From: Eledone cirrhosa
Lineage: Eukaryota
Reading direction: 5' to 3'
DNA length: 64,000 bases
Assembly (NCBI GenBank): GCA_964016885.1
Contig: OZ024741.1
Coordinates: forward strand, 114,018,001 to 114,082,000
Both the position numbers and the translations under genes were made by a program. Positions 38,124 to 59,577 of the stretch are shown here, in pieces. Position 1 is the stretch's first letter, and every line of letters starts with the position of its first letter. The notes beneath the pieces are model-generated. The model made no database searches. It saw nothing but the letters and a program-made list of their open reading frames with translations, and was not told the origin of the DNA.

Positions 38124-38509
38124 TGTAGCTAAATCTGTCCACACCTCGAGCCCTGGGTGACGCTTAAAGGTCAAATTCTAGATCACCACACTTTTGCTGT
38201 AAACAAGTTGATGAGTGAACGATCTCTCAAGGCAAGGGACAGTGGAAGTTGGAGATATAAATAGCCGGTAGAAGGAGAGAGAAGGTTCAATCCTCACGAG
38301 GACTACTACCTGACTACAACAACCAACAAACATTGTCTGGTCACTCGCTGTTTCACATCAACAACAAAAAAAACATTGTCAACCTTTGTGACTCGTGGTA
38401 ACCTATTTGTTGTTCTTTTTAACTGAAGTAGAGTAAATTGTATATCAAAAGTAAACCAGCTATTCGTGTTATTTCTTCTAACGATAACTACTAACTTTGC
38501 TTCGCTTCA
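38124..38509 (+). repeat. 5' LTR (386 bp)
   Basis: TGTAGC...GCTTCA; TATAAA near 38256; direct repeat of 59193-59577. Confidence 0.95.
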
Positions 38510-38511
38510 AT

Positions 38512-38523
38512 TGGTGACCCGAC
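38512..38523 (+). promoter_or_regulatory. Primer-binding site, tRNA-Trp-like
   Basis: TGGTGACCCGAC 2 nt after the LTR; complementary to the tRNA-Trp 3' end GUCGGGGUCACCA with one C missing. Confidence 0.75.
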
Positions 38524-38581
38524 ATTAGAACACACAGCTTTCTGAGACATCTATAATTACCAACGATAATCACGCAACAAT

Positions 38582-39480
38582 ATGGAACAATCACCAGCAT
38601 CATCGTCCATACAAGCAGCAATATCCCTGCGGATACCAACATTCTGGCCTCATGATCCTGCCATTTGGTTCAGATTCATCAAGGCCCAATTTGAGATGCA
38701 CCATATTTCGTCAGACAGGACAAAAACTTCCCTTGTTGTCGGGGCGCTTCCTCCTGAGAGCCTGCAGCAGATCCGAGATTTGCTTACAGCACCACCAGAC
38801 ACATATTCTTATGCCACATTTAGGTCCGAGCTTATAAAGCAGACATCCATCTTGCAGCAGCAACAAATTAATCAGCTGCTTTATTCAGAGGAGTTAGGCG
38901 ACAAGAAACCGTCACAGTTCTAAGACGCCTAAAGCAACTATTGGGAGAAAATACCATGGAGCCGGCCATCTTAAAACAGCTGTTCTTACAAAGGCTGCCA
39001 CCAGCCACTCGCAGTATTTTGGCGGCCAGTGAAATATCCACCCCAATCAAGGAGCTGGCGAATTCAGCTGATAGGATCATGGAGGTGGCAACAGCATTGT
39101 CACTCGTGACCCAGGACACACACACACACACACATCCAATAGTAAGCTCTTTTTCTTCCCCTCTTTCTTCCTCATTTTCTAATTCTTCTCCTTCCTTGTC
39201 TTCTGTTTCGGAGGTGGTGGCGCTCGAGGCTCGGGTGGAAGAACAGGTCGAGCAACTGAATGCTCTTGTGGCTAAACTACAGCTACAACCATGCAGCAAT
39301 GCCAGCTCAACTCGACATGCTTCCCATCAGTGCCCGCAAGATCCGAGTCATACCCGGGCGACCGATCCCATGTGCTATTACCACCGTAAATTAGGCAAAA
39401 GGGTCTGTAAAGGCCTATTGCCCTGTTCTTTTAGGAGGGGTTTCAGTTATGTGCTAGGAAATGACGTAGCCAAGCAGTAA
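38582..39480 (+). pseudogene. gag: Gypsy gag (frameshifted near 38920)
   Basis: LRIPTFWPHDPAIWF...AQF, LGDKKPSQF, LFLQRLP, CYYH..LG....LPC knuckle remnant. Confidence 0.88.
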
Positions 39481-55549: not shown

Positions 55550-55585
55550 ATATAATAGACAGGACCCCCTGGCCGTGCTGCATCC
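55535..55585 (-). promoter_or_regulatory. Putative RNA Pol I gene promoter / initiation site (TATTATATAGGGTAA, +1 near 55549)
   Basis: Most gene-proximal copy of the repeated GCAGCACGGCCAGGGGGTCCTGTCTATTATATAGGGTAA motif; resembles TATA(TA)GG initiators of rDNA promoters. Confidence 0.65.
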
Positions 55586-58500
55586 TCCGGAATCGTTGCA
55601 AATCCCCCAAGGGCGATCCGCCCGCCACGGGTCGGCTGTGGAACCGCCTAGACGGCGGGTTGGCTTCGGTCCCGCTGTCGATGCGGGACCTAGAATGGCT
55701 AGAGAGATAGAAGGCGGCGTGTCGTCGGCGAAGCTACACCACTTCGCCGTTCGGGCGTCGTCGTCGGCTGGATTCCCCTGCAGCCACCGCGGGTCGGACG
55801 CGGCCGACTCGGCACGCATCAACGGCGGAACGTTTACCGGGTACGAGGCGGAAGGCGTCGTGTCGCGTGTACACGCCGTCTTGCCGCATCTCTTTCCCGG
55901 CAGCTACTCGCAAACGTACGGGTCGGCGGCGGATTCGATTACTTTCCGCCGTCTACACGGGGCCTCCCCGAAGGAAGCTAGTTGGCAGCGTGTTGTCGTC
56001 GCGTCGACGACCAAGCTACTCCACGCCGCCGTTCGGGCGTCGTCATCGGCGGCTCGATTCCCCTGCAGCCATACGGGTCGGAGGCGGCCAACTGGGCACG
56101 CCCCTTAAAGGCGGAACACGCATCAGAGGCGGAGGGCGGGCGTTAACGTGCAGGCGGCGCGGACGAGTTCTAGACGGCATGTCGTCGAGGCGGAGACATC
56201 CGACATAGCATAGGGTAAGCCGGCACGTACCCGTCTTGAAAACGAAATATTCACGTCTCTCGACGGGTAGCACCCGGAATCGTTTTCTTCGAGCTCGTCC
56301 GATCAAGCTTACCCTATATAATAGACAGGACCCCCTGGCCGTGCTGCAAAATCCCTACTCGGTGGTATTCCCCGCAGGCGTTTCGCAACCCTACGGGTCG
56401 GCGGCGGATCCGCCTCGCCGGCGGGTTGCGAACTTTCTCGCGATCGAAGCGGGAAGGCGTGAACGAATAAAGGAACGTTTGCCGGGTTCGAGGCGGAAGA
56501 CGAAGGCGTCGTGTCGCGTGGCAGAACTTCGCGTATACACGCCGTCTTGCCGCCTGTCTTTCCCGGCAGCTACTCGTAAAAGTACGGGTCGGCAGCGGAA
56601 CCGCCTAGCCGGCGGATTGGATTTCTTTCCGCGATCGAAGCGGGAAGGCGTGGACGAATAAAGGAACGTTTGCCGGGTTCGAGGCGGAAGACGGAAGGCG
56701 TCGTGGAACTTCGCCTCGCTTCGCGTATACACGCCGTCTGTCTTTCCCGGCAGCTACTCGTAAAAGTACGGGTCGGCGGCGGAACCACCTAGCCGGCGGA
56801 ATGGATTTCTTTCCGCCGTCTACACGGGGCCTCCCTGAAGGAAGCAAGTTGGCGGCGTGTTGTCGTCGCGTCGACCAAGCTACAACACGCCGCCGTCCGG
56901 GCGTCGACATCGGCTGAATTCCCCTGCAGCCACACGGGTCAGAGGCGGAGGGCGGGCGTTAACGTGCAGGCGGGGCGGACGAGTTTTAGACGGCATGTCG
57001 TCGAGGCGGAGACATCCGACATAGCATAGGGTAAGCCGGCACGTACCCGTCTTGAAAACGGAATATTCACGACTCTCAACGGGTAGAACCCGGAATCGTT
57101 TTCTTCGAGCTCGTCCGATCAAGCTTACCCTATATAATAGACAGGACCTCCTGGCCGTGCTGCAAAATCCCTACTCGGTGGTATTCCCCGCAGGCGTTTC
57201 GCAACCCTACGGGTCGGCGGCGGGTTGCGAACTTTCTCGCGATCGAAGCGGGAAGGCGTGAACAAATAAAGGAACGTTTGCCGGGTTCGAGGCGGAAGAC
57301 GGAAGGCGTCGTGTCGCGTCGCGGAACTTCGCGTATACACGCCGTCTTGCCGCCTGTCTTTCCCGGCAGCTACTCGTAAAAGTACGGGTCGGCAGCGGAA
57401 CCGCCTAGCCGGCGGATTGGATTTCTTTCCGCGATCGAAGCGTGAAAGAGTGGACGAATAAAGGAACGTTTGCCGGGTTCGAGGCGGAAGACGGAAGGCG
57501 TCGTGGAACTTCGCCCCGCTTCGCGTATACACGCCGTCTTGCCGCCTGTCTTTCCCGGCAGCTACTCGTAAAAGTACGGGTCGGCGGCGGAACCGCCTAG
57601 CCGGCGGAATGGATTTCTTTCCGCCGTCTACACGGGGCCTCCCCGAAGGAAGCAAGTTGGCGGCGTGTTGTCGTCGCATCGACCAAGCTACACCACGCCG
57701 CCGTCCGGGCGTCGTCATCGGCTGGATTCACCTGCAGCCACACGGGTCGGAGGCGGCCAACTTGGCACGCCTTAACGGCGGAACAAGCATCGGAGGCGGA
57801 ATACGGAGCGGAGAGCAGGCGTTAACGTGCAGGCGGGGCGGACGAGTTCTAGACGGCATGTCGTCGAGGCGGAGACATCCGACATAGCATAGGGTAAGCC
57901 GGCACGTACCCGTCTTGAAAACGGAATATTCACGACTCTCAACGGGTAGCACCCGGAATCGTTTTCTTCGAGCTCGTCCGATCAAGCTTACCCTATATAA
58001 TAGACAGAACCCCCTGGCCGTGCTGCAAAAGCCCTAGACGGTCGTATTCCCCGCTGCCGACCCGTAAGCTTACGGGTCGGCGGCGGAACCGCCTCGACGG
58101 CGGATTGATTACTTTCTCGCGATCGAAGCGGGAAGGCGTGGACGAATAAAGGAACGTTTGCCGGGTTCGAGGCGGAAGACGTCGGGGAACTTCGCCTCGC
58201 TTCGCGTATACACGCCGTCTTGCCGCCTGTCTTTCCCGGCAGCTACTCGTAAAAGTACGCGTCGGCAGCGGAATCGCCTAGCCGGCGGATTGGATTTCTT
58301 TCCGCGATCGAAGCGGGAAGGCGTGGATGAATAAAGGAACGTTTGCCGGGTTCGAGGCGGAAGACGGAAGGCGTCGTGGAACTTCGCCTCGCTTCGCGTA
58401 TACACGCCGTCTTGCCGCCTATCTTTCCCGGCAGCTACTCGTAAAAGTACGGGTCGGCAGCGGAACCGCCTAGCCGGCGGATTGGATTTCTTTCCGCGAT

Positions 58501-59112
58501 CGAAGCGGGAAGGCGTGGACGAATAAAGGAACGTTTGCCGGGTTCGAGGCGGAAGGCGTCGTGGAACTTCGCCTCGCTTCGCGTATACACGCCGTCTTGC
58601 CGCCTGTCTTTCCCGGCAGCTACTCGTAAAAGTACGGGTCGGCGGCGGAATGGATTTCTTTCCGCCGTCTACACGGGGCCTCCCCGAAGGAAGCAAGTTG
58701 GCGGCGTGTTGTCGTCGCATCGACCAAGCTACACCACGCCGCCGTCCGGGCGTCGTCATCGGCTGGATTCACCTGCAGCCACACGGGTCGGAGGCGGCCA
58801 ACTTGGCACGCCTTAACGGCGGAACACGCATCGGAGGCGGAATACGGAGCGGAGGGCGGGCGTTAACGTGCAGGCGGGGCGGACGAGTTCTAGACGGCAT
58901 GTCGTCGAGGCGGAGACATCCGACATAGCATAGGGTAAGCCGGCACGTACCCGTCTTGTAAACGGAATATTCACGACTCTCAACGGGTAGCACCCGGAAT
59001 CGTTTTCTTCGAGCTCGTCTGATCAAGCTTACCCTATATAATAGACAGGACCCCCTGGCTGTGCTGCACAGGCCCTAGACGGTCTTATTCCCCGCTGCCG
59101 ACCCGTAAGCTT
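55586..59112 (-). repeat. rDNA intergenic spacer: four higher-order repeats (766-1041 bp), each with a spacer-promoter copy and ~180-bp subrepeats
   Basis: CCCTATATA on the + strand at 56312, 57128, 57991 and 59032; subrepeat GATCGAAGCGGGAAGGCGTGGACGAATAAAGGAACGTTTGCCGGGTTCG... present in 1-3 copies per unit. Confidence 0.88.
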
Positions 59113-59192
59113 GTTTTTTTTTTCTCTCTTTCTCTTTCGCTAACTTTTCAATTATCGATCGCTGCTCCCCATCGATCTAGGTGGGGAACTAA

Positions 59193-59577
59193 TGTAGCAA
59201 AATCTGTCCACACCTCGAGCCCTGGGTGTCACTTAAAGATCAAATTCTAGGTCTCCACCCTTTTGGCGTAAACAAGTTGATGCGTGGGCGATCTCTTGAG
59301 GCATGGGACAGTGAAAGTTGGAGATATAAATAGCCGGTAGCAGGAGAGAGAAGGTTCAATCACCACGAGGACTACTACCTGACTGCACTGACCAACAAAC
59401 ATTGTCTGGTCACTCGCTGTTTCATATCAACAACAAAAAAAACATTGTCAACCTTTGTGACTCGTGGTAACCTATTTGTTGTTCTTTTTAACTGAAGTGG
59501 AGTAAATTTTATATCAAAAGTAAACCAGCTATTCGTGTTATTTCTTCTAATGATAACGACTAACCAGCTTCGCTTCA
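59193..59577 (+). repeat. 3' LTR (385 bp), preceded by polypurine tract
   Basis: TGTAGC...GCTTCA; AGGTGGGGAA at 59179-59188; followed by GACT. Confidence 0.95.

Follow-up and report, generated by a model that had tools for sequence, protein, structure and literature searches.

A dead ribosomal DNA unit inside a decayed Gypsy element of Eledone cirrhosa is one of a dispersed set of probable circle origin

The window analyzed here, the whole 64-kb stretch at positions 114,018,001 to 114,082,000 of OZ024741.1 (C2) in the 3.0-Gb Eledone cirrhosa assembly GCA_964016885.1, contains a GC-rich, 15.85-kb block of ribosomal DNA (rDNA; 43261 to 59112) with spacer subrepeats at both ends, lying inside a Gypsy long terminal repeat (LTR) retrotransposon. 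It is one of 15 independent dispersed rDNA blocks of at least 9 kb, which are found on C1, C2, C3, C4, C6, C7, C10, and C25 (loci are named by assembly sequence plus position in Mb, and L-numbers denote fetched stretches). The two ends of most of these blocks fall close together when mapped onto tandem copies. We consider a circle origin highly probable for most of the set and assign it a probability of roughly 0.7 for the window copy.

The dispersed blocks were found by an 18S search (best 40 of 136 candidates) and a search with internal transcribed spacer 2 (ITS2), with flanks fetched; all 25 ITS2 candidates were scored, and none added a further large block. Two C25 sites with the same flanks were counted as one event, as were three copies at C4:352. 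In addition, there is an array-like rDNA cluster on C12. For the closure test, the first and last 70 bases of 14 blocks were mapped on natural tandem copies and the tail-to-head gap was determined. Ten of the 14 close within 300 bp, with gaps of 84 bp for the window, 71 for C25, −2 for C4:352, 68 for C2:166.9, 20 for C2:7.57, −14 for C4:236.7, 118 for C1, 13 for C3:366, 288 for C6, and −21 for C4:153.4. Among 700 random fragments from each of two tandems, the corresponding null is 4.0% and 13.3% (P = 9e-12 and 1e-6). All four blocks in which both ends are single copy close (13, 20, 68, and 288 bp) versus a null of about 2%, and one of three with a single such end does so (118 bp; null, 1 to 2%). 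Random cuts with both ends in repeats close within 300 bp in about 50% of cases, so the five closures of that kind, the window's included, say little alone. Independent cuts or later tandem shrinkage would be expected to keep two unrelated end phases, whereas a circle opened once would give closure. Looping by the assembler should produce overlapping ends and leave the copies free of private changes; it is therefore disfavored by closing gaps that are mostly positive and by copies that carry 0.02 to 1.8% private changes, although C2:166.9, the youngest block, is the least protected by this reasoning.

The sequence-only reading had placed the rDNA antisense between the integrase end of the Gypsy element and its polypurine tract (PPT) and 3′ LTR, and this layout is borne out by gene placement, by the LTR pair, and by the read-through of an interrupted short interspersed nuclear element (SINE). 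The features are as follows.

37945-38119, plus strand: left part of a SINE split by Gypsy; 10 of 10 other junction-reaching copies continue into the right flank
38120-38123: left target-site duplication (TSD), GATT; the right copy is GACT, the form found in most other SINE copies
38124-38509, plus strand: 5′ LTR (TG...CA), 355/386 identical to the 3′ LTR, Kimura two-parameter (K2P) distance 0.083
38570-42570, plus strand: decayed gag-pol with DUF7041, reverse transcriptase (RT), RNase H, and integrase, in Ty3/Gypsy order, with stops and frameshifts; 86 to 90% to siblings
42571-42936, plus strand: Gypsy 3′ untranslated region (UTR) before the insertion point
42937-43261, minus strand: 3′ end of an RTE-like long interspersed nuclear element (LINE) with a (GAT)n tail; 92% to window 31599-31916
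43261-45154, minus strand: downstream spacer (intergenic spacer, IGS, subrepeats) and 3′ external transcribed spacer (ETS); overlaps the RTE piece by 1 nt (A)
45155-46536, minus strand: 3′ part of 28S, beginning at the R2 target site
46537-47161, minus strand: 3′ 625 bp of an R2 short internally deleted element (SIDE); 91 to 92% to SIDEs at C4:352 and C6:69.6 Mb
47158-47161, minus strand: deletion joint with 4-nt microhomology (CTTC); the loss comprises 1,584 bp of 28S plus the initial 536 bp of the SIDE
47162-49267, minus strand: 5′ part of 28S (Rfam)
49869-50027, minus strand: 5.8S (Rfam), 1/156 from the majority base
50573-53416, minus strand: 18S (Rfam), expanded to 2.84 kb, 24/2827 from the majority base
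53417-55560, minus strand: 5′ ETS with a 356-bp duplication; likely gene promoter (TATATAGGG motif) near 55546
55561-59112, minus strand: upstream spacer with four more TATATAGGG repeats; overlaps Gypsy by 2 nt (TT)
59111-59192, plus strand: remaining Gypsy 3′ UTR and PPT; siblings resume at 59111-59119
59193-59577, plus strand: 3′ LTR, paired with the 5′ LTR
59578-59600, plus strand: right TSD (GACT), after which the SINE goes on

Rfam places the 28S at 45155 to 49267 on the minus strand, with the 18S and 5.8S likewise on the minus strand. The TATATAGGG motif is one that we liken to a Pol I initiator and take to be a putative promoter. Both flanks belong to one locus, as first thought, because all 10 of the other SINE copies read on across the empty site through a GGACTGGCATCC-like stretch with one to four differences. 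The locus is very probably real. The host has the paired TG...CA LTRs, short TSD, and PPT of a Ty3/Gypsy element, together with the domain order RT-RNase H-integrase; the earlier figures of about 92% LTR identity and a 4-bp TSD (GATT/GACT) agree with the alignment. Its reading frames are broken (longest, 376 amino acids [aa]), and the earlier description of CpG-rich rDNA in a heavily decayed Gypsy is matched by an observed/expected CpG ratio of 1.48 in the rDNA block versus 0.43 to 0.62 in the Gypsy and in both flanks.

Sibling Gypsy copies match as far as 42936 and then again from 59111. The foreign block thus measures 16.2 kb, consists of the RTE-like 3′ piece plus the rDNA, and starts at 42937 rather than at 43261 as originally read. 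The points matching 42936 and 59111 are separated by 6 bp in one sibling (L013) and by 95 bp in another (L001). No TSD surrounds the foreign block, and at least 6 bp of target has been lost. In other siblings, the two match points lie 370, 859, and 7,835 bp apart, with about 95 bp of each interval being ordinary UTR; the insertions are distinct, so this TA-rich spot in the 3′ UTR is a common landing site. Neither a Gypsy LTR nor a Gypsy body adjoins any of the 14 other large blocks. The view that the LTR setting is special was wrong, the Gypsy being an incidental and in itself ordinary landing site. A protein-coding gene had also been placed about 15 kb away, but none was found among the 40 of 115 long frames that were scanned, which gave transposon domains only. 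Absent from the sequence-only reading were the RTE piece as an earlier insertion of its own, the SIDE remnant in the 28S, and the permuted units spread over the genome.

Private substitutions were counted among 24 rDNA copies. The window unit has 41 at 8,705 sites (0.47%), compared with 0.02 to 0.08% in the young copies at C12, C25, and C2:166.9 and 0.3 to 7.7% in other dispersed copies. Its terminal branch is 0.005 versus the LTR K2P distance of 0.083; divergence per LTR is about 4%, or 2 to 6% allowing for uneven differences, which makes the rDNA unit about 4 to 12 times younger than the Gypsy. The idea of a younger orphon set in an older element therefore stands. So does its solitary character as opposed to the edge of a collapsed array, as the window ITS2 is only 92 to 93% like the young, array-like copies. 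The LINE piece, whose family we take to be RTE, differs at 15/302 positions from the majority of 21 other copies, its best matches (from the best 40 of 3105 candidates); those copies differ by 3 to 8, and 15/302 departs from a 0.9% expectation (binomial P = 1.6e-7). Pfam identifies RVT_1 and PHD in the longer RTE-like copy in the window. The private-change and divergence figures suggest the order Gypsy, then RTE, then rDNA, although this order could be obscured by gene conversion or by RTE subfamilies that escaped notice.

Two explanations that tie the rDNA to a retroelement are affected by these figures. Transport of the rDNA as Gypsy cargo, to which its position between the LTRs and the intact PPT might point, had been rejected by the sequence-only reading, and we regard that rejection as practically certain: the rDNA is too young by the factor given above, a 21-kb element would be needed, rDNA is matched at none of nine fetched sibling Gypsy loci, and the other blocks have no LTRs. 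It is also very improbable that an RTE reverse transcriptase switched from its own RNA to a Pol I read-through transcript. The rDNA and RTE tail are indeed both in sense orientation on the minus strand, the rDNA abuts the truncated 5′ end of the RTE precisely, with its 1-nt overlap, and short rRNA-derived pieces from the 18S 5′ end are present in the genome. However, such a chimera should be of one age, whereas the 15/302 of the RTE compares with 0.5 to 0.9% for the rDNA; the closest RTE copy is only 94% identical (best 40 of 3105 candidates); there is no TSD; the insert is 15.85 kb long with spacer at both sides; and no RTE tail lies beside the other large blocks.

In the history that we propose, the Gypsy would have inserted into the SINE and the RTE into the Gypsy 3′ UTR. 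Much later, recombination within the array would have freed a SIDE-bearing unit as a one-unit circle in the germ line; this circle would have opened in the spacer and been end-joined at a break in the RTE, with loss of the RTE 5′ part and some target. The 28S/SIDE deletion could have occurred before or after integration. The window block carries the scars of end joining, namely, a lack of TSD, small target loss, and microhomology. At the two of 12 other loci where target loss could be reconstructed, it amounts to 13 and about 240 bp; at C4:352, the right flank was matched by none of six fetched copies.

Several observations weigh against the circle origin. Four of the 14 blocks do not close (C3:2.85, gap of 1522 bp; C2:251, gap of 5576 bp; C10 and C2:170, an unmappable end each). 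The C7 block was too rearranged to enter the test, two block ends, at C2:7.57 and C4:153.4, had been moved outward manually beforehand as far as rDNA letters could be seen, and the 71-bp closure of C25 was read on its own two-unit duplicate. Further R2-site loci sought as a held-out set numbered six, all short old fragments. Spacer repeats contain both ends of the window block, and among random cuts of that kind 14 to 29% close within 100 bp; the case for a circle origin of this copy therefore comes from the other loci. The differences between its LTRs are unevenly distributed (23 in the first 200 columns and 8 in the last 186; P = 0.014), for which reason the rDNA/Gypsy age ratio is only 4- to 12-fold. 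Four read runs at the left junction gave unitigs that were short and lay in high-copy repeats, and none of the pieces listed crosses 43260/43261; this outcome counts neither for nor against the joint. Finally, work on magnification in Drosophila favors unequal exchange over circle reintegration, going by the accessible part of that source (PMC10666004), and so cautions against taking circles as the default.

Some of these points bear on a linear piece of the array, cut or copied at two independent spacer points and captured at a break by templated insertion or fragment capture, with no circle involved at this locus. We consider this a minority possibility. The same junction features would be expected, pairs of ends in spacer close by chance about as often as not, and four of the 14 blocks do not close. 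However, only 28/700 and 163/700 random fragments of 9 to 27 kb have both ends in repeats, and closure is seen in most of the other blocks, among them those whose ends are single copy. Misassembly, in which array sequence was spliced into the Gypsy, draws on the lack of a spanning piece and on the repeats at both sides of the junction, but it is very unlikely: the window has no N letters, the flanks come together to within 6 bp when set against the empty site of a sibling, and the unit has its own deletion, its 41 private changes, and a mid-ladder place apart from the young copies. A circle remains our preferred source. With respect to the LTRs, the differences crowd window 38124-38323 versus 59193-59392, and sibling LTR pairs are only 1 to 3.4% apart; partial gene conversion of the pair is possible.

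The rDNA unit had been described as complete, which does not hold for the 28S. Read against a natural uninserted copy, it lacks 1,584 bp and contains, at 46537 to 47161, what is left (the 3′ portion) of a 1.16-kb R2-derived insert. The 18S and 5.8S are full length and are accompanied by ETS, ITS, and IGS, but the unit is unable to make a whole 28S and is a dead rDNA unit. Among the best 40 of 395 candidates scored, no other match spans the 28S/SIDE deletion joint. Whole SIDE copies elsewhere are 1.16 to 1.24 kb long, have a longest frame of 152 aa, and have both ends in common with R2A, a 3.8-kb element with a 995-aa frame (RVT_1) at the same R2 site. The similarity to R2A is 92 to 95% in the 5′ 65 bp and 84 to 90% at the 3′ end; in the SIDE 3′ half, matches were detected only in the final 125 bp and, weakly, over 137 bp. 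There are several SIDE subfamilies, 74 to 99% alike and present in most assembled units, and the 5′ joints vary between copies. A second lineage, R2B (4.97 kb), has a 1,214-aa frame with RVT_1 and C2H2 fingers and also occupies the R2 site.

A helix-pattern search predicts helices P1, P2, and P3 of hepatitis delta virus (HDV)-like ribozymes in SIDE, R2A, and R2B, with compensatory changes. The P2 pairs are GGCGCC/GGCGCC, GGCACC/GGTGCC, GGCGCT/AGCGCC, and CCACAC/GTGTGG, P3 is CCC/GGG, and P1 starts from position −13 of the 28S. An earlier L3 motif pattern had given 0/10, and Rfam matched no ribozyme family in the SIDE. The 5′ ribozyme end is deleted from the window copy. The insert thus has the sequence features of R2 SIDEs, and self-cleavage is predicted.

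Other R2-related sequences were also observed. A whole SIDE lies outside rDNA at L070 5158-6345 (C7:22.097 Mb), within a (CA)n run; a few letters resembling 28S stand before it, which would fit a SIDE RNA cut upstream in 28S. Pieces of R2A, R2B, and SIDE are clustered at L069 (C18:15.058-15.068 Mb), with no rDNA detected within the 10 kb fetched. Stacked insertions at one R2 site (SIDE and then R2B; pieces of SIDE, R2B, and R2A) occur in L065 and in L045-L078, at C2:251.16 and C7:29.29 Mb. Short old 28S pieces in L124, L127, and L130 (C2:385.5, C6:50.99, and C15:1.38 Mb) have upstream a common 3′ end unlike R2A, R2B, or SIDE, which is perhaps that of a third R2 lineage.

At the R2 site, every one of the 15 blocks bears a SIDE, R2A, R2B, or the remains of one; on C1, these amount to only 13 foreign letters. 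In the C12 cluster, three of four visible units are inserted and one is clean. A pattern search with one mismatch allowed, which old clean sites could escape, found 1 clean R2 site versus 27 downstream halves. Trees of units and of SIDEs form matching ladders with the window mid-way, some unit nodes being weakly supported, and the two sets of distances are correlated (Mantel rho, 0.56; P = 0.0045; 10 units, kinship uncorrected). This agreement of trees and distances makes it unlikely that old orphons were filled late by present-day SIDEs. Together with the inserts in all 15 blocks, it favors the tentative idea that R2 or SIDE insertion drives escape, with cutting at the R2 site popping the inserted unit out as a circle and a few circles landing again; we hold this to be possible but doubtful. 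Alternatively, arrays may simply be mostly inserted, as are the visible C12 units. If insertion does drive escape, the germ line would shed parasitized rDNA units, and the scattered units would serve as a dated fossil record both of the array and of its R2 parasites.

Various arrangements of rDNA were seen at other loci. At C4:352.06-352.16 Mb, one dispersed unit is triplicated with its flanks in steps of 39 to 40 kb, and the single C25 insertion occurs twice, 0.9 Mb apart, once with one unit and once with two. Repeats on C28 were considered as a second rDNA class and rejected, as they are scrambled fragments; L054 3644-10000 (C28:124.72 Mb) is a satellite-like mosaic of 35- to 60-bp rDNA fragments, with five 18S matches 30 to 41 kb apart, and this mosaic apparently lies within larger tandem duplications. 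A satellite of at least 28 kb derived from an 88-bp 3′ spacer repeat lies beside an old rDNA block (L133, L077, and L044; C7:29.252-29.280 Mb). An rDNA block terminates, from position 637 of L066 (C2:251.168 Mb), in a degenerate (TAACCC)n-like run; the location is interstitial. Two 411-bp 18S pieces with identical ends, L088 5533-5944 (C6:98.23 Mb) and L089 5200-5610 (C3:291.16 Mb), have the 18S 5′ end as their start and lie between an upstream (TA)n and a SINE-like head; they are likely RNA-derived copies. In the window, an Rfam match to the histone 3′ stem-loop (38.2 bits) at 61387 to 61432 probably belongs to a repeat.

The means by which rDNA reaches new places on chromosomes are not settled, and this genome holds many single integrants that have the predicted signature and are inherited through the germ line. 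Each integrant offers two testable junctions, and the copies record successive states of a normally self-erasing array plus an abundant nonautonomous R2 family. Dispersed rDNA, R2, SIDEs, and rDNA circles are each already known. In the literature searched, which was thin on subscription journals and without supplements, we found no report of cephalopod R2 SIDEs or of permuted dispersed rDNA units. The comparisons that follow rest on the accessible portions of the cited papers. Three octopod species each have one chromosome pair bearing the nucleolus organizer region (PMC6160780). In yeast, reintegration of extrachromosomal rDNA circles (ERCs) is treated as a hypothesis, with no experimental evidence at new sites stated in the portion available (Proux-Wera 2013, PMC3622299), and a study of Lepidoptera did not tell circle reintegration apart from ectopic recombination (PMC10257491). 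The set described here resembles ERC reintegration in having whole units with spacer at new chromosomal sites, double-strand-break capture being the proposed step (PMC3622299, PMC10257491); it differs in comprising many single, circularly permuted integrants at nonhomologous sites with a range of ages.

The SIDEs resemble those of Drosophila, which are also noncoding inserts at the R2 site that combine the R2 5′ ribozyme region with the 3′ end (Eickbush and Eickbush 2012, PMC3414825). However, the Drosophila elements are 529 bp long versus 1.16 to 1.24 kb here, the host here is a cephalopod, and cleavage here is predicted. As in R2 elements with a 28S-derived P1, this helix is predicted from 28S −13 to −7, one of the cleavage positions reported, although here the prediction is from a motif search and has one mismatch (Eickbush et al. 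2013, PMC3774820). Cassandra, Galadriel, and rDNA pseudogenes likewise provide dispersed dead rDNA and rDNA beside LTR elements; those of the Cassandra/Galadriel type are transposable elements inside rDNA or a 5S piece in LTRs, whereas in the window a whole 45S unit lies in a dead, nonmobilizing element (PMC10946416).

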